From assembly GCA_965218775.1 (NCBI GenBank), contig CBDCLS010000004.1, forward strand, positions 983,890 through 1,047,889: 64,000 nucleotides of DNA, in the 5' to 3' direction. Every line of letters starts with the position of its first letter. Positions within the stretch are counted from its first letter, which is position 1. The translations under genes and the position numbers were made by a program. The notes beneath the pieces are model-generated. The model worked only from the letters and a program-made list of their open reading frames with translations. It made no database searches and was not told the origin of the DNA. Of the stretch, positions 2,340 to 56,647 are shown piece after piece. This stretch comes from Acidobacteriota bacterium (GTDB taxonomy: Bacteria; Acidobacteriota; UBA6911; RPQK01; JAJDTT01).

Positions 2340-2615
2340 TAAGTGCTCCCTTCCATAAATACGATGATGTATGTGGCGAGCGCGACGGGTCGAGTTCGCG
2401 AAGCGACGACGAACTCGATGCTTTGTATCTTGGAGGAGGAGCGACAAAGAAATCGGCGCGTCCCGTCGCCACCCGTAGGGCAGATGGGGGTTGCGGACGA
2501 TCTCGGCGTTGGTCGTCGTCGAAGATGGCCAAGCATCGTCTTCCTCCTCCTGCCTTGATCTCGCCTCGCAAGCCCCATCTGCATACATCATCGTATTTAT
2601 GGAAGGGAGCACTTA
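2340..2615. repeat. MITE-like palindromic repeat, copy 1 (~276 bp). It has a conserved core and perfect ~34-bp terminal inverted repeats.
   Basis: The left end taagtgctcccttccataaatacgatgatgtatg is the reverse complement of the right end catacatcatcgtatttatggaagggagcactta. The core GGCGAGCGCGACGGGTCGAG...GGAGGAGGAGCGACAAAG...CTTCCTCCTCCTGCC is shared with the elements at 24624 and 48425. Confidence 0.7.
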
Positions 2616-9294: not shown

Positions 9295-9401
9295 CCTGAA
9301 ACTTCATTTGCGAACGTAGCTTTGGTCTCCAGGCCGAAGTCTTATTCCTTCGAGCCTTTGGCTCGGGACGGCGGCCTGGAGACCACCGCTACGCCGGACC
9401 C
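9295..9401. repeat. REP-like dispersed repeat, family A, copy 1
   Basis: This copy is nearly identical to 43001-43105 and diverged from 36795-36899. It contains the hairpin tctccaggccg...cggcctggaga. Confidence 0.6.
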
Positions 9402-14865: not shown

Positions 14866-14877
14866 GGGTGAAACCCA

Positions 14878-15068
14878 AGAGGGAAGATACAAGAGACAAG
14901 ATACAAACAAATCTCAAATTCCAAGCTCCAAACGTCGTGGCCACTGGGAAATCTTTGCGAGTGGTAGCCCCGCGGGAATCGAGAACTACATCGGATCGTT
15001 TGAAATTTGGTGCTTGTGATTTGGAATTTGTTTGTATCTTGTATCTTGTCCCTTGTATCTTCCCTCTT
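14878..15068. repeat. large imperfect inverted repeat (~50-bp arms, AT-rich) flanking ~80 bp
   Basis: The left arm is gagggaagatacaagagacaagatacaaacaaatctcaaattccaagc. Its reverse complement is gcttgtgatttggaatttgtttgtatcttgtatcttgtcccttgtatcttccctc. Confidence 0.55.
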
Positions 15069-15088
15069 GCATCTTGGCTTCGCTCCCC

Positions 15089-19863: not shown

Positions 19864-19927
19864 AGCAGCGTTTACATTAACAGATTTATTTTCGTCCTGC
19901 AGGGGGCTTACGAGGAACTCAACATAC

Positions 19928-20163
19928 CCGTTTACCGTCCCACCCTTGCCTTTGCCCGTGCCCGTGCCCTTGCCCTCTGATCTCATCTTCTGGTCGCATC
20001 GAGGCTTTTGACCAACCCGCTCGGTATTGACTCGATTCTCCCGATGTAAACTGCTCTCCGCAGCGGCGTTCAGAAGCCGCAGGCTGACTAGGGAGACGCG
20101 AGACGATCCTGGGAGCGGCACGGGCACGGGCACGGGCAAAGGCAAGGGTGGGACGGTAAACGG
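19928..20163. repeat. MITE-like element bounded by a perfect ~41-bp inverted repeat, in the intergenic region upstream of lipA
   Basis: The left arm ccgtttaccgtcccacccttgcctttgcccgtgcccgtgccc (19928-19970) is the reverse complement of the right arm gggcacgggcacgggcaaaggcaagggtgggacggtaaacgg (20121-20163). The arms contain (GCCCGT)n microrepeats. Confidence 0.65.
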
Positions 20164-20170
20164 ATACGAC

Positions 20171-24017: not shown

Positions 24018-24326
24018 TTAGTCAGCCTTGCGGCTTTCAAGCCACCGGCGCAGCGAGGTCTGGGTCTCACCGGAACGTCGCCCAGCCAGAAGACCCTCGA
24101 TGCTGATGTCTTCGTCCAAGTCGGGCCAGTGAATCCCTTCTCCTTCCCCAATGAGGCGCCAACGTCCGCGTTCGGCTGCGCTGCCATGTGCAAGGCGGGG
24201 GTACCAGGTCAGCGGAACAGCGATCATACGACCGTCGACAAGATCGACCACCAGCGCGTCTTCGGTCACCGACACGTGTTGAGCCCTTGCCTCGCTGGTG
24301 TCGCTCCGTGATGGTGAAATACTCAT
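24018..24326 (-). CDS. DUF2442 family protein (part of a DUF4160/DUF2442 TA-like pair)
   Basis: Motifs are DGRMIAVPLTWYPRL...ERGRWRLIGEGEGIHWPDLDEDIS. Confidence 0.6.
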   Translation of the reverse strand: MSISPSRSDTSEARAQHVSVTEDALVVDLVDGRMIAVPLTWYPRLAHGSAAERGRWRLIGEGEGIHWPDLDEDISIEGLLAGRRSGETQTSLRRWLESRKAD

Positions 24327-24329
24327 CCC

Positions 24330-24597
24330 ACATTCTCAGAAAGAGTTGCTCTTGTTCAATCACAAGCCGCTCAGGCCTCTGAAGCTCCACAGCGCCAAAA
24401 CCGCCGCTCCGAGCCAACCGTACAGGGCCAAGCCAGAACTTTGCACGGTTCGCCTCCCGTTCGACGTGAACGTGCGCGGGTTCGTTGCGGTCGGCCGAGT
24501 AAAAAAAGAACCGATAGGGACCCTCGCGATGAACCGTCGGCACGACATAAGTAGTTCGCTTGGTCGATCGTTCTCGGCGATTTGCGAGCGCCTCCAA
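24330..24597 (-). CDS. DUF4160 family protein (the 3' end is uncertain)
   Basis: The N-terminus VPTVHREGPYRFFFYSADRNEPAHVHVEREANRAKFW matches DUF4160. The track ORF has no stop until 24067, so the natural stop may be lost. Confidence 0.5.
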
Positions 24598-24623: not shown

Positions 24624-24917
24624 GCTAAACAGAGCGTCTTAAGTCTACGGTAACGTTTGTGGCGAGCGCGACGGGTCGAGGGCGCGAAGCGTCTCGACGC
24701 GAAGCGACGACGAGGCGATGCTTGGTATCGTAGAGGAGGAGCGACAAAGCCATCGGCCCGTCCCGTCGCCACCCGCGGGGCAGAGGGGGGTTGTGGACGA
24801 TCTCTGCGTGGGTCGTCGTCGAAGATGGCCAAGCATCGACTTTCTCCTCCCGCCTTGATCTCGCCTCACAAGCCCCCTCTGCAAACGTCACCGTAGACTT
24901 AAGACGCTCTGTTTAGC
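24624..24917. repeat. MITE-like palindromic repeat, copy 2
   Basis: It has the same conserved core as 2340-2615. Its own 28-bp terminal inverted repeat is gctaaacagagcgtcttaagtctacggt / accgtagacttaagacgctctgtttagc. Confidence 0.7.
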
Positions 24918-31598: not shown

Positions 31599-31769
31599 GC
31601 GGGACAATCGGGGGTGACCCAGAATCCTCAAACTGCCGCTAGTACTCTGTCAACCTGGAGATTGTGGGTTATGGACGAGCCATGGTGGTCGAGGTCAAGG
31701 CACGCGGCCGCAGGCATAGCTTGGTCTACGTCCAGGACGCGCAACGCAGAGATCGGCCGCCAGGGCCGT

Positions 31770-32525
31770 TCAGAACCTACAATTTCCAGGTTGACAGGGT
31801 ACTAGGGTCTCCAGAAGCTTTCCGAAGCCCAGTACCGGCTGCCGAATTCCCAGAGCGCGAAAGACCGACCAGATCGTGGCCTGATTGGAGGTCACTACTG
31901 GCTTTCCCGTGATCTTCTCCAGTGCGTCGGCAGCTTCCATCGCTCTCCAGGCGGTGCAGGAGCAGAAGAGTGCATCGGCTTCGGGTCGACACACCGAGGA
32001 GGCGAAGTCGACAATAGCTTCGGGGTCTTGATCGTTGATCCCCTGTTGGCCCGCAACCGCCGCGACTGGTTCCGCTTCCAGGTTGAGCACCGAGAATCCG
32101 GCCGCCTCCAGATAGCTCTGCAGTCTCTGATTCCCCCAATCCGAATAGGGACTGGCGACCGAGATCTTCTTGGCTCCGATCGAGTTCAGCGCCTCCACTG
32201 CCGCGGGACTGGTCACCACGGCCGGGACTCCTGCCGTCTTCTCTATCAGGTCAGCCATCTCCCGGTCCCATCCGGCTCCCCTGTAGAAACTGCCGGTGGT
32301 GCAAGCATAGGCAATGACGTCGACCTTGGCGGTCGCCAGATAGCGGGCACCGCTCTCTATGTCTTCGTTCATTCGCCCCATGCCATCTTCACTTCGGGTC
32401 TCGTTGGTGAGCCAGAGACGCTGGCCATGAAGGGTCACACCTTCAGTAACGGCCATCTGGAAGTCTGCTTCGCAGGTCGTGTTGGTGGAGGGGACCAGTA
32501 GACCCACCCGCTTTCGAATACTCAT
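31770..32525 (-). CDS. Asp/Glu/hydantoin racemase family protein (maleate isomerase / arylmalonate decarboxylase-like)
   Basis: The family pattern includes conserved Cys-containing segments (IAYACTTGS, LFCSCTAWRA). Confidence 0.6.
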   Translation of the reverse strand: MSIRKRVGLLVPSTNTTCEADFQMAVTEGVTLHGQRLWLTNETRSEDGMGRMNEDIESGARYLATAKVDVIAYACTTGSFYRGAGWDREMADLIEKTAGVPAVVTSPAAVEALNSIGAKKISVASPYSDWGNQRLQSYLEAAGFSVLNLEAEPVAAVAGQQGINDQDPEAIVDFASSVCRPEADALFCSCTAWRAMEAADALEKITGKPVVTSNQATIWSVFRALGIRQPVLGFGKLLETLVPCQPGNCRF

Positions 32526-36794: not shown

Positions 36795-36899
36795 GATTTG
36801 AAACTCGGACGTAGCTTTGATCTCCAGGCCGAAGTATTCTTCTTCTTTTGAGCCTTTGGCTCGATGCACCGCGGCCTGGAGACCGCCGCCACGACCCGG
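36795..36899. repeat. REP-like dispersed repeat, family A, copy 2 (diverged)
   Basis: It has the tagctttgatctccaggccgaagt...gagcctttggctcg...cggcctggagacc structure. Confidence 0.55.
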
Positions 36900-44330: not shown

Positions 44331-44394
44331 GCCTCCTTCAAGCGGAAGGAGTCCGGACTGTAGATGATGCGTTTAACGAACGGGGTGGCGAAAA

Positions 44395-44566
44395 GGTCGA
44401 GGAGCCCATTGCCTTGGGAAAACTGGAGTACAGCAGAGGCGGCAAGCCGTCAAGGGGCTACGCCCCTGCTTCTGTCGCTGCGCTCCTTACGCCCCTTCGG
44501 GTGACCGCTTCCCGCCTCTGCTGCGGGGAGGCTTTCAAGAAGGCAATGGGCTCCTCGACCTTTCCT
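44395..44566. repeat. perfect 23-bp inverted repeat pair enclosing ~125 bp
   Basis: aaggtcgaggagcccattgcctt (44395-44417) is the reverse complement of aaggcaatgggctcctcgacctt (44544-44566). Confidence 0.5.
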
Positions 44567-45046
44567 GGAGGCGGGCTTACCGCGCAGGGACGACCGAGGA
44601 GACCCCTTTCGTGCAAGAAGGCGCGAATAGATGGATGGGAGAGACCGACGTCTGAGGGCGTCCACCCGCTAGTCCTAAGCAAAAACGACAGTCCCCAGAC
44701 TCGAAACGAATTGCTATGGCCAACCGAACCAGTTCTCTTGCTGCCTCGTCCGTGACCGGACTCGGCGTTCAATCGGCTCTTCGAGCCGATCTAGGGGAAG
44801 TGTGCCTTGACAACGACCGTGTTCTTATAGATGAAACTTCATTCGAACCTCGCACGTCCCGGGTCACGGGTTGCTGCGAGAACTATGGAAGCCTGAAGCG
44901 CGAGCGAGGGGGTGGTCGAATGCTTTTTGGCAACGCATCTCGCAGATTCCCAACCCCTCGCTCGCGCTTCAGGCTTCTATGGCTCAGTCAGTTTCTTTCT
45001 CGAATGGGGCCAGCACCGCTGGGGGCAGGACTAACCTGAAACTTGA

Positions 45047-45531: not shown

Positions 45532-46083
45532 GTGGAGGTGCCTAACATGAGCAGCGTTCTTTCCTCGATCGAGTCTGAATACCACAGGTACAAATCTCTG
45601 GGCGAAGGTGCGATTGCACAGCTTCACGAAAGTGAGTTGTCGGAACCGGGAGCAGGGGGAGCTAATTCCGTGGCCATTCTGATCTGGCACCTGGCAGGCA
45701 ATTTCAAGTCCCGCTTTACCGACTTTCTTAGTTCGGATGGAGAAAAGCCCTGGCGCAGGCGAGACTCGGAGTTTGCGTCGCGAGAAGTCACCCGTTCTGA
45801 GCTACAGGTGAAGTGGGACGACGGCTGGACCAGCCTCTTTACAGCTCTGGAAGAACTCTCAGAGGAAAACCTGGGGGATTCGGTGACAATCCGAGGCCAA
45901 CAAGTGACCGTGCACGAGGCACTCCACAGATCGCTGGCTCACGCCAGCTACCACATTGGACAAATCGTCTACATCGCGAGAACCCTTCGCGGCGACGCTT
46001 GGAACTACTTGAGTATTCCTCCGGGTGAGTCGGAGCAATACAATCTCAATCCAACCCGGGAGAAGGGGCCGAACACACTCTAG
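45532..46083 (+). CDS. DinB/YfiT-like (DUF1572) helical-bundle protein
   Basis: It has a DinB_2-like His pattern (HLAGN...H...H..GQ). Confidence 0.45.
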   Translation: MEVPNMSSVLSSIESEYHRYKSLGEGAIAQLHESELSEPGAGGANSVAILIWHLAGNFKSRFTDFLSSDGEKPWRRRDSEFASREVTRSELQVKWDDGWTSLFTALEELSEENLGDSVTIRGQQVTVHEALHRSLAHASYHIGQIVYIARTLRGDAWNYLSIPPGESEQYNLNPTREKGPNTL

Positions 46084-46150
46084 TAATCTGTGTTACAGCG
46101 TACTAGCAGCATCGGCTTACGACCCTGCGACTGCACTCGGAGAGATTCCC

Positions 46151-47663: not shown

Positions 47664-48428
47664 ATGATCATTGTGAGAAGGCGCTCTTCTTTACCGGTCT
47701 TCTTGATCCGCGTGGGTCTTGCCTTGGTCTTCGCGGCCGGTTTGTACTTTCTACACGCTCCTCTGCTGAATCGGCTGGGACAGATCCTGGTTCATCAGGA
47801 TCCTTTGCGTCCTGCCGACGCCATTACGGTCATCCCTGGCCCCGGCAGGGAGCGGATGAGGACTGGGATACGGCTCTTCAAAGAAGGATTCGCGGAGAAA
47901 CTGATACTCTGCGGGTCTTGGCCAGATTCACTGGTCAAAACGGCACTCAACGCCGGCGTTCCCTCCTCACAAATCGTGTACCGCAAATCAACTCCAGAGG
48001 ACTATCTCTGTTGGAAATGCTCGGTCCCCATCAGTGGTACGGCCGGGGATGCCCAAGTGATCGTGCAACTTCTGGAGACTTCAGGGATGGACAGCATCAT
48101 CGTGGTTACCTCGGACTACCACAGCGCCCGCACCGCTTCGGCGTTTCGACAACTTCTCAAGAACAAACCAATTGTGATGATGGTCCAACCCACCCAGGAG
48201 CAGTTCCCCGATCTCAACAGCTGGTGGGAAGACCGCTACAGCGCCCGGCTGGTAACGGGGCAACTGCAAAAGACCGTGTTTTCACTGTTCTCCGAGCAGC
48301 TGCCGGATTGTCTTCTGCATCCGATTCAGGACCCTTTGTCTAACGTGGCCGGGAAGCTCAGGTCCCTACTCCTATCCCAACCCGACTTCATGAGGCAGGG
48401 ATTACGCGGCGAACAAGGTCAGGACTAG
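47664..48428 (+). CDS. DUF218 / YdcF (SanA/ElyC-like) family protein
   Basis: The DUF218 core is ITVIPGPG...LILCGSW...VTSDYHSARTASAF. It has an N-terminal transmembrane segment. Confidence 0.55.
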   Translation: MIIVRRRSSLPVFLIRVGLALVFAAGLYFLHAPLLNRLGQILVHQDPLRPADAITVIPGPGRERMRTGIRLFKEGFAEKLILCGSWPDSLVKTALNAGVPSSQIVYRKSTPEDYLCWKCSVPISGTAGDAQVIVQLLETSGMDSIIVVTSDYHSARTASAFRQLLKNKPIVMMVQPTQEQFPDLNSWWEDRYSARLVTGQLQKTVFSLFSEQLPDCLLHPIQDPLSNVAGKLRSLLLSQPDFMRQGLRGEQGQD

Positions 48429-48701
48429 TACGCTGTAACACAGATTATGACGGATTTATGGCGAGCGCGACGGGTCGAGATCGCGAAGCGACGACGAACG
48501 CCATGCTTGGCCATAGTGGAGGAGGAGCGACAAAGATATCGGCCCGTCCCGTCGCCACCCGAAGGGCAGATGGGGGTTGTGGACGATCTCTGCGTTGGTC
48601 GTCGTCGAAGATGACCAAGCATCGTCTTCCTCCTCCTGCCTTGATCTCGCCCCACAAGCCCCATCTGCAAATCCGTCATAATCTGTGTTACAGCGTACTA
48701 G
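48425..48701. repeat. MITE-like palindromic repeat, copy 3
   Basis: It shares the conserved core. Its own terminal inverted repeat is ctagtacgctgtaacacagattatgacggatttatg / caaatccgtcataatctgtgttacagcgtactag. The left end supplies the TAG stop of the DUF218 gene. Confidence 0.7.
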
Positions 48702-49297
48702 CCTGAGAGGCGCGGAAACAGCTTGCCGGTCCGCTTCTGGTAGCCGCGGTAGTCGTCCCCGAAGCGTTTAATCAGGTTCTCTTCTTCCTTCGTCGTACGG
48801 ATGAAAATCAGAGCGAAGGCGAGCCCTCCGGTCAGGGCCAGAAACCAGTTCGCTGTCGCCAAGGAGTCAGCAACGATGATCAGCCCAAATGCGAGGTAGA
48901 AGGGATGGCGAACCCATCGATAGGGACCCCAGGTGACAAGCGTGTGCTCGAGTCGGGTGACGACCGTATCAGTCAAATTGGTGCCCAAGCTCCGGAATAC
49001 CCAGACCAGAAGGCTCGCCGCAACAACTCCGATACCAACGCCAGACCATCGCAGCCAGATCGGCAGACCAACCTTGGACCAGACCATCCATTCTGGGTTG
49101 ATCAACCAAGCGAAGAGTCCGATCATCCTGAAAAGGGCAATCGGGCGCAAAGTCGCGAGGACGAACAGGCCTTCCTGTCGTCGATCCAGCGTCTCACCCG
49201 AGGCCTGAGACTTGAGTCGATGGTAGACCCCGATAGGGAATATGGCAGCAAATCCAATGATGAGGATAAGGCGAAACGTCTGATCGGCTTCCGTCAT
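48698..49297 (-). CDS. isoprenylcysteine carboxyl methyltransferase (ICMT) / phospholipid methyltransferase family membrane protein
   Basis: The ICMT pattern is GPYRWVRHPFYLA...EE..L...FG..Y..Y. It is multi-transmembrane. Confidence 0.6.
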   Translation of the reverse strand: MTEADQTFRLILIIGFAAIFPIGVYHRLKSQASGETLDRRQEGLFVLATLRPIALFRMIGLFAWLINPEWMVWSKVGLPIWLRWSGVGIGVVAASLLVWVFRSLGTNLTDTVVTRLEHTLVTWGPYRWVRHPFYLAFGLIIVADSLATANWFLALTGGLAFALIFIRTTKEEENLIKRFGDDYRGYQKRTGKLFPRLSG

Positions 49298-55168: not shown

Positions 55169-56484
55169 CAGTAGTGTCCCAGCGTTAGTCGAATAATATC
55201 AACTGTTTATGAATGTCACTATTCTGAGTAATGTAGTCCATGTCCTGAAAGGCCTGTAAAATGGGGGTTTTCTCGAAGAGCGAGACGCTCAGGACCTGGA
55301 GAATTGTGTAGAGCGGCAACTCGAGATAGAGACGCTTGCGAATGATGGCGATGAGCAGGTAGGTGCTGAGGGCGATCCAGATTTGTGTTTTCACGGCATT
55401 GGGACTGGTGCCGTAAAAGGCCTTGATGCGGAGATGCTGTTTGATCCATTTGAAGAACAGTTCGATCTGCCAGCGGAGCTTGTAGAGCTGGGCAATGGTC
55501 AGAGCGGGAGAAGCAAAGTCGTTGGTGAGGAATACGAGCCGCAGGTCGGTGGTGACGTCGAAGAACTTGATACGACGCAAAGGTTCGGGGTAGGCCTTGG
55601 CCGGATAGAAGGTGCTCAGCAGGACAGTTTGGTCGCAGACTAGTCCGGTCGTTCTGTCCACCGCATGGGAGTAGCGGCGGCGGAACTTGAAGTTGGCCTT
55701 GGCGCGGGTCACGAACAACGACCGAGCGGTATGGAGTCGGTACAGGCGCCCGAAATCCAGGTATCCGCGATCCATGATGTAGTAGGCACCGGGACAAGGC
55801 ATCAGGTGGTCCAAGGCGTTGACATCGTGCAGTTTCCCGTCCGAGATCAGAACAAATTCGGGAATGGCGCCGTGCAGGTTGAGTAAGGTATGCAGTTTGA
55901 TCGCCCCCTTGGTGCGGCGGAAGCGCGCCCAGGGGAAGACCGAGAGGCACAGGTCGATGGTCGTGGAATCCAAGGCATAGACGGTCGCGTCCAGGTCGAC
56001 TCCCAGGTCCTCGTCGGTGTAAAGGCTGCGCGCTTCGGCGATGAGCACTTCGGCAAACTCGGCATAGATGCGCCAGTCTCGCCTCTCGTTGGCATTGGAC
56101 AGATTGTTGCGGGAGACCGTGGAGCGAATGCCCATGTGGAAGAGCTTGGATCTCATGGCCCGTAGGCAGGCTTCGATATCGCGCAAGCTCTCGCGATAGG
56201 TCAACTGCGCAAATGCCATGACCCGGTAATGGTCGGCACAACGGAATGACTTGACCTTGTAGTCGCCTCGGTAGTGCTGAACAATGCGATGAAAACGATG
56301 CCAGGGAAGATGCCGCATCACCTGAGAAAAGATCGTCGTGCCCGTGTACATGCCCGCCCTCCTTATGAACTGAAGGGCGTGAGCATACACTCACTTTCAA
56401 GTCGGAAACACCTATTATCTTCTCTAACATATTGCTCATTAATACTTTACAGAGATTAGAGTCCCAAACGTTGGGACACTACTG
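55169..56484. mobile_element. IS4-family IS element, 1316 bp, with an 18-bp terminal inverted repeat and a 9-bp target-site duplication
   Basis: The terminal inverted repeat is cagtagtgtcccagcgtt (55169-55186) / aacgttgggacactactg (56467-56484), with 1 mismatch. The direct repeat atcccactt lies at 55160-55168 and 56485-56493. The element has lower GC than its flanks. Confidence 0.8.
55185..56390 (-). CDS. IS4-family DDE transposase
   Basis: Its C-terminus LYKLRWQIELFFKWIKQHLRIKAFYGTSPNAVKTQIWIALSTYLL is the classic IS4 signature. Confidence 0.8.
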   Translation of the reverse strand: MYAHALQFIRRAGMYTGTTIFSQVMRHLPWHRFHRIVQHYRGDYKVKSFRCADHYRVMAFAQLTYRESLRDIEACLRAMRSKLFHMGIRSTVSRNNLSNANERRDWRIYAEFAEVLIAEARSLYTDEDLGVDLDATVYALDSTTIDLCLSVFPWARFRRTKGAIKLHTLLNLHGAIPEFVLISDGKLHDVNALDHLMPCPGAYYIMDRGYLDFGRLYRLHTARSLFVTRAKANFKFRRRYSHAVDRTTGLVCDQTVLLSTFYPAKAYPEPLRRIKFFDVTTDLRLVFLTNDFASPALTIAQLYKLRWQIELFFKWIKQHLRIKAFYGTSPNAVKTQIWIALSTYLLIAIIRKRLYLELPLYTILQVLSVSLFEKTPILQAFQDMDYITQNSDIHKQLILFD

Positions 56485-56647
56485 ATCCCACTTCGAGATA
56501 CACTTCCGCTTCAAGCCGGCTCTCCCCTTCGAGAGGACCTACCTCGCGGATGCTTTCGCTGGCTAAGTCATTACTGTGCAGGGAGACTCCACAAGACGTC
56601 AGAAAAACCAAACACGGTAGCATCGAACTAATCTTTGGCATGCTCAC
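56485..56647 (-). pseudogene. the 5' portion (lipoprotein signal peptide plus ~35 aa) of the IS-disrupted DUF4097 gene
   Basis: It reads MSMPKISSMLPCLVFLTSCGVSLHSNDL... (lipobox LTSC). Its start overlaps the stop of the upstream gene (ATGA). Its frame joins 54471..55168 across the TSD as ...EVG|YLMIDQ.... Confidence 0.6.

Follow-up and report, generated by a model that had tools for sequence, protein, structure and literature searches.

The repeats described here are copies of a MITE, a small non-coding mobile element of an ordinary kind, that is spread through uncultured marine Acidobacteriota. Three full-length copies lie in the 64,000-nucleotide stretch of DNA that was analysed (hereafter the window; G+C 58%), and many more are found in other genomes. 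The window belongs to a 1.9-Mb contig of ENA assembly ERZ25067264. Probably the element is moved in trans by a DDE enzyme related to the IS5/PIF-Harbinger transposases, and its cores recombine or are converted between copies. To our knowledge the mobile elements of the UBA6911-like lineage are essentially undescribed, and the repeats constitute an abundant, recently active MITE family in these uncultured marine organisms (UBA6911-like MAGs). The family exemplifies concerted evolution of cores inside each genome combined with the survival of older arm classes across species, and it advises caution where a 'conserved core with variable ends' is read as a sign of function. Its copies mark sites of recombination and inversion, occupy the stop codons of convergent genes and are apparently a preferred target of an IS4-family element, all of which makes them relevant to annotation, assembly and strain comparison.

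Copies in the window

The three full-length copies, at 2343-2612, 24628-24913 and 48428-48698, all lie on the plus strand. Their cores, which by alignment run from TGGCGAGCGCGACGG to CCCCATCTG over about 210 bp, are 83-92% identical in pairwise comparison, whereas the three arm sequences have a mutual similarity of merely 30-45%. In a BLASTN search of the window, copy 1 matched 48459-48669 with 92.4% identity over 211 nt (E 1e-85) and 24646-24895 with 82.8% over 250 nt (E 5e-72), both on the plus strand, and gave a weak match to 31690-31760 on the minus strand (72%, E 3e-5). A sequence-only reading of the window had proposed three copies with a conserved core of about 200 bp, and both BLASTN and the analysis of the arms confirm this; a core HMM run over the window found no further copies beyond those listed in this report.

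Copy 1 is 270 bp long and carries arms of class b; its left arm occupies 2343-2373, its core 2374-2581 and its right arm 2582-2612, and the flanks read C-TAA (2339-2342) and TTA-G (2613-2616), the two trinucleotides being unequal (TAA/TTA). Copy 2, at 286 bp, has a left arm at 24628-24659, a core at 24660-24881 that includes a 15-nt insertion, and a right arm at 24882-24913, with TA at 24626-24627 and 24914-24915 enclosed by C and G; its arm type, AACAGAGCGTCTTAAGTCTACGGTAACGTTTG, has no second occurrence among the copies examined. Copy 3 measures 271 bp and belongs to arm class c, with the left arm at 48428-48458, the core at 48459-48667, the right arm at 48668-48698, and TA at 48426-48427 and 48699-48700 within CTAG. 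Taken together with the flanking bases, the arms are 100% complementary over 35 nt in copy 1 (2339-2373 and 2582-2616) and over 33 nt in copy 3 (48425-48457 and 48669-48701), and 97% complementary with a single mismatch over 36 nt in copy 2 (24624-24659 and 24882-24917). These lengths of 33-36 nt count the flanking C/TNA or C/TA, the arms proper being 31-32 nt.

Two of the three gene contexts had been noticed before and are borne out. Copy 2 is located upstream of the minus-strand gene for a DUF4160 protein (24067-24597). Copy 3, which had been said to abut two genes, sits between the convergent genes for DUF218 (47664-48428, plus strand) and ICMT (48698-49297, minus strand), whose stop codons lie within the two CTAGs, the insertion having occurred exactly in the formerly overlapping stop codons. 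Next to copy 1 an FMN dehydrogenase is encoded, for which an exact-protein look-up returned no record.

Insertion sites and target-site duplications

Two precise empty sites define the ends of the element and the duplication that accompanies its insertion. At the first, a class b copy at locus L046 reads ATC-TAA-[GTGCTCC..GGAGCAC]-TAA-GCC where another species (L018) has ATC-TGA-GCC. The second concerns copy 3 itself: the window has GG-CTAG-[TAC..GTA]-CTAG-TC, and three related assemblies (L073, L074 and L075), in which the ICMT and DUF218 genes overlap at this very point, have GG-CTAG-TC. The element is likewise absent from the orthologous intergenic region at L037. Arms and core thus insert as one unit, duplicating TNA or TA, and since the empty sites have neither arms nor core, the arms are part of the mobile unit and not a pre-existing target. 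The check for empty sites in related strains that had been suggested is thereby answered, and the description of the repeats as a MITE-like family gains support from the duplications and the empty sites alike. The copies are small and non-coding, they have terminal inverted repeats and a single target at the empty site, and they are dispersed with presence/absence differences.

The flanks of the TNA-type copies are highly constrained, with C at -1 in 31 of 32, G at +1 in 30 of 32, and T or A as the N of TNA in 58 of 64 cases. The same TNA stands on both sides in 20 of the 32 copies, against about 0.42 expected by chance; the duplications of the other 12 are mismatched in the style of copy 1 (TAA/TTA). 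We considered whether flanking trinucleotides of such an 'inverted type' extend the palindrome and rejected the idea, because N is nearly always A or T and any mismatch between the flanks will therefore look complementary. Flanking CTAG is invariable in classes c, d and e, and classes a, b and f have CTNAG instead. Copy 2 (C-TA-AACAG...CTGTT-TA-G) is compatible with a duplication of TA and incompatible with a 4-bp duplication of CTAG, and the simplest reading is that staggered cuts are made on either side of the TA in C-TA-G or of the TNA in C-TNA-G. Because such targets carry stop codons on both strands, many copies are found exactly at gene ends, and insertion sites often lie in stop codons between genes.

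Arm classes and exchange of cores

An exact-pattern scan of species-representative genomes gave at least 56 loci, all within six MAGs of Acidobacteriota (one is labelled UBA6911), and 50 of the full copies listed, with both flanks available, entered the comparison of arms and cores. More copies are present in JGI metagenomes and in the sample from which the window derives, and the viral contigs that were searched yielded none. Independent assemblies, some from long reads and some from short reads, contain the family in at least seven genomes, and its copies are consequently not assembly artefacts, a possibility that had been raised at the outset. The additional copies in the window's own sample (ERZ25067264) are at L076 9955-10156, L077 6680-6881 and L078 9955-10159, 14230-14439 and 17568-17672; among them are copies of class a, not represented in the window, and a further short relative. 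The presence of class a on other contigs of this sample indicates that the source genome has several arm classes.

Terminal inverted arms are present in 46 of the 50 further copies. Among the matches listed (50 further copies from six MAGs), the arms fall into at least seven recurring classes that are common to different species, namely a, b, c, d, e, f and X, alongside rarer types, and the arms of these classes are all 31 nt long. The class a arm is GTACACTGGAACGTAAATACGGCAACGTTTG, class b is the type of copy 1 and class c that of copy 3; class b occurs in at least five genomes, classes a and c in at least four each, and class d in at least three. The impression that each copy has arms of its own is therefore correct within the window and fails beyond it, since arms of the copy 1 and copy 3 types are found in further genomes. 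Common blocks, namely GTAC at the tip of the arm, TAAATACGG halfway along it and GTTTG at the inner end, show the classes to be homologous. The terminal nucleotides vary by class (GTAC, GTGC, GATG and AACA).

Cores cluster by genome rather than by arm class, and the arm classes are old and common to several species. Arms of one class are 0.86-1.0 identical and arms of different classes 0.30-0.76, whereas core identity between classes (0.88-0.92) is approximately the within-class value. When copies are sorted by genome and by class, core identity is 0.959 where both are the same, 0.927 for the same genome and different classes, 0.856 for different genomes and the same class, and 0.861 where both differ; the identity of cores between genomes matches that of the adjoining orthologous DNA (83-95%). 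In a clustering of the cores, those of MAG CBDCMS that have arms of classes a, b, e and g group together, and in MAG CBDCUP, classes c, a and X have a common 20-nt insertion in the right hairpin. Chimeric copies, with left and right arms of different classes, are found at L007, L028, L016 and L026, and crossing-over between copies at different sites produces mismatched duplications of the kind counted above (12/32). The clustering by genome, the common insertion, the chimeras and the mismatched duplications together point to recombination or gene conversion through the core.

By such exchange, copies would recombine with or convert one another via the core, homogenising the cores and shuffling arms and flanks, and ectopic events of this type would yield a single conserved core between different ends. 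The contribution of gene conversion is inferred from these patterns of similarity. A conserved core with variable ends, which had been called atypical for classic MITEs, thus probably has an ordinary cause in the exchange of cores within genomes. Homogenisation is not universal, since the cores of class c cluster by class rather than by genome, at about 0.95 identity across three genomes; this pattern suggests recent spread or transfer, and horizontal transfer may have contributed to it. We also considered correction of one arm by the other at each transposition, a possibility rejected on the ground that many class a copies have the same pair of arm mismatches in common.

Coding potential and structure of the core

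A protein-coding reading was tried on the strength of a minus-strand ORF preceded by a GGAGG-like site and beginning with ATG. It was rejected for its short, domainless relatives and its broken frames: among 5.8 billion proteins the hits to the longest ORF were 32 ORFs of 61-131 aa, all free of Pfam domains, without a long relative among them, and indels of 1, 5, 15 and 20 nt among the copies break every frame.

The core had been described as one extended imperfect palindrome. Its self-complementarity is in fact weak (E ~6e-5 in an nhmmer comparison with its own reverse complement), and it folds best as two side-by-side hairpins. In the consensus fold the stem formed by the arms encloses the hairpins TGGCGAGCGCGACGG/CCGTCCCGTCGCCA and GCAGATGGGGGTTGYGG/CCTCRCAAGCCCCATCTGC, and folding compared with shuffled sequence gives z of about -11 for every copy on either strand.

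This architecture raises the question whether the two-hairpin core is a structured nucleic acid (RNA or ssDNA) maintained by selection, be it a cis element for mobilisation or a regulatory or terminator RNA of the host, between arms that drift while pairing. Several observations favour such a role. On the consensus structure 98.4% of core cells are paired, as against 40-50% when the partners are slid by 1-3 columns, and double-sided changes account for 56 cells over five pairs compared with 20.6 in shuffles, a value reached by none of 500 shuffles. Pairs 60/133 and 61/132 occur as GG/CC, TT/AA, AT/AT and TC/GA, and pair 181/275 is T-A in 29 copies and C-G in 15; in the divergent relative at L041, the base of the right hairpin is kept by three adjacent compensated pairs. 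A precedent exists in the bcr1 repeats of the Bacillus cereus group, MITE-like elements in which compensatory base-pair changes maintain a cruciform-like structure (PMC3184786). The present family resembles bcr1 as a dispersed MITE-like repeat with short direct repeats and compensatory changes (PMC3184786); bcr1 differs in its length of about 155 bp, its 5-bp direct repeats and its known transcription, and compensations are few in the family studied here.

Other results weigh against this interpretation, which we regard as unlikely on balance. Rfam 15 had no match at gathering score in the window and none at E<=10 for copy 1. Neither strand folds better than the other, and G.T mismatches are about as frequent as A.C mismatches (38/30 in the arms; 17/21 for sporadic ones in the core). 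Orientation relative to adjoining genes is random, without bias, and a promoter scan found no promoter-like site. The structured RNA that had been suggested, with Rfam as one means of detecting it, thus finds no backing in database matches, in a strand bias of wobble pairs or in orientation. Only about five pairs vary, representing few events in related sequences, and in the family of the short relative described below substitutions mostly break pairs (one compensated against about 14 broken; covariation term +3.1). Conservation of the core is already explained by homogenisation within genomes, and templated mutation could have produced the adjacent double changes. Templated mutation of the quasi-palindrome type may lie behind the few compensated pairs; more speculatively, a hairpin or cruciform might confer an advantage in synapsing the ends of a very short element. 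If the core were a required structure, it would bear on how the ends of very short elements are paired in transposition.

A related proposal starts from the right half of the core, which persists at 72-85% identity in relatives with different arms and a different left half. The core, and this half in particular, could be a selected cis-acting structural module of DNA or RNA that several distinct transposase lineages require, or the host exploits, and that has passed between otherwise unrelated sets of ends. We consider this improbable; were it true, the core would be modular cargo between interchangeable ends and not a passive deletion derivative.

Three pairs of motifs in the core of copy 1 add a detail of a different sort: CGACGACGA, GATGCTTTG and GGAGGAGGAG at 2406-2444 are complementary to TCGTCGTCG, CAAGCATC and TCCTCCTCC at 2513-2551 and follow one another in the same order, not mirrored, so the three pairs cannot all nest in one hairpin. 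In some copies a variant of these motif pairs, CGCCGCCGA, is uncompensated.

We give very little credence to the idea that the core of about 210 bp is a separate mobile element that inserts into pre-existing palindromes in the style of IS200/IS605 or IS110/IS1111. The unrelated appearance of the three arm pairs in the window lends itself to this idea, as does the sharp junction between core and arm (TTTG/TGGCGAGC ... CATCTG/CAAA), but neither empty site has arms or core, and TNA or TA is all that has been duplicated, which contradicts the hairpin-target alternative that had been put forward from the window. Identical arms, moreover, stand at many unrelated loci, about 610 kb of sequence yielded no palindrome made of arms alone, and deletion derivatives retain the arm ends. 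A REPIN-like doublet, mobilised as a single-stranded hairpin by a RAYT (Y1/HUH) enzyme, is barely credible: the copies do resemble REPINs as intergenic, hairpin-forming repeats of high copy number with a long hairpin shape, two nearly perfect arms that are kept complementary and strand-symmetric hairpin constraints, but unlike REPINs, which have conserved head tetranucleotides, a Y1 enzyme and no target duplication, they duplicate their target, vary at their termini without a conserved GTAG/CGTC head, and consist of 270-290 bp with an asymmetric core rather than of two inverted REPs of 20-40 bp.

The transposase and related mobile elements

In the favoured reading, a MITE mobilised in trans with exchange of cores between copies, a DDE transposase would make 3-nt or 2-nt staggered cuts in the manner of IS5/PIF-Harbinger elements. 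Each arm class would probably answer to its own cognate transposase: the length of the duplication tracks the arm class, and the classes are thus probably served by different enzymes. Neither the window nor about 610 kb of fetched loci nor the surroundings of the further copies yielded an autonomous element with matching arms. The search comprised arm searches with up to five mismatches in all loci, an all-against-all comparison of repeats, a scan of the window for CTNAG followed by GTRC, and a survey of inverted repeats around neighbouring transposase genes. The only elements that this search brought up are of the IS4 family, IS903-like or IS3, with ends unrelated to the MITE arms, and a metagenome scan with the pattern 'arm then not-T', which matches every right arm as well, returned only the right arms of ordinary MITEs. 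With no autonomous partner found, it is the duplication that suggests a transposase of the IS5/PIF-Harbinger kind. The variation of the arm termini from class to class counts against this assignment, since closely related DDE enzymes would not usually act on ends so dissimilar.

Comparison with known families places the element in familiar company. The bacterial IS1031, IS427 and ISL2 groups of the IS5 family make duplications of 2-4 bp, and we presume that those of the IS427 and ISL2 groups would cover the TA classes found here. Like the Tourist-like MITEs of the IS5/PIF-Harbinger superfamily, the copies are short and non-coding, with terminal inverted repeats and deletion derivatives; they are unlike them in the variation of the arm termini and in the one core common to at least seven arm classes. 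Correia (NEMIS/CREE) elements of Neisseria duplicate TA, have arms of about 26-30 nt and occur as variant types and chimeric subtypes; they measure 100-155 bp, lie between genes as long hairpins and have known promoter and IHF sites. The present family is similar to them in its TA duplication, its variant and chimeric arms, its intergenic location and its long hairpin, and differs in its length of about 280 bp, its two-hairpin core and its use of TNA as well as TA duplications. The insertion site is like that of the eukaryotic NuwaII group of the PIF/Harbinger-IS5 superfamily, for which duplication within C-TNA-G has been described together with an ambiguity between 3 bp and 5 bp (PMC4482050). 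In the family studied here TNA is duplicated in the same context and the ambiguity is identical (PMC4482050).

A short relative and scars

The weak minus-strand match in the window had been counted as a fragment of the family. It belongs to a complete shorter element of 161 bp (31642-31802, minus strand), which forms one long hairpin with arms of its own, GTACCCTGTCAACCTGGAAATTGT, and extends from CTAG to CTAG (31639-31805), with TA within CTAG at either end (31639-31642 and 31802-31805). These arms resemble the outer part of the class c arms, and between them the sequence has about 72% similarity to the right half of the main core; sister copies are present at L025 (7146-7312) and L047 (1615-1779). 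A minus-strand ORF (31770-32525) enters the short relative by 35 nt and has its stop codon inside it, so that its last 11 codons and the stop would be derived from the element.

Deletion derivatives and scars are found as well, the derivatives retaining the arm ends. A remnant of 21 nt on the plus strand (46083-46103), composed of GTA and the final 18 nt of a class c right arm between two TA of CTAG, is the scar of an internal deletion or excision, and lies at the stop codon of a DUF1572/DinB gene (45532-46083). At the ICMT/DUF218 CTAG of a sister species, the site occupied by copy 3 in the window, L068 and L070 have a decayed remnant of 66 bp (2100-2170) that contains GCGCAACGCAGAGATCGG and GTGTTACAGTCCA; it represents an independent insertion at this site or else an old one that has decayed.

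An IS4-family element and other palindromes

The window contains an IS of the IS4 family at 55169-56485 (DUF4372 and DDE_Tnp_1), with ends CAGTAGTGTCCCA and a 9-bp duplication, ATCCCACTT. A relative of 1343 bp in MAG CBDCMS is repeatedly found inside a MITE arm, in both arms, at the 9-mer AATTACGAT/AATTACGGT; the loci are L001 (1934-3276 and 3523-4865), L054 (5436-6780), L011 and L030 (3294-6013). At L030 the insertion is a tandem double one, and a unit of the form IS-MITE-IS occurs at three loci. The IS4-family element therefore appears to target the MITE arm.

Several intergenic palindromes in the window are unrelated to the MITE (14876-15075, 44392-44563, 44880-44985, 19925-20166, 9315-9393 and 36807-36896). 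They are of various kinds: an A+T-rich palindrome of about 200 bp with AAGATACAAG repeats, one of 172 bp with perfect 24-nt arms, one of 106 bp, one whose arms are made of GGCACGGGCA repeats, and a REP-like sequence, CGTAGCTTTGRTCTCCAGGCCG, at two loci.
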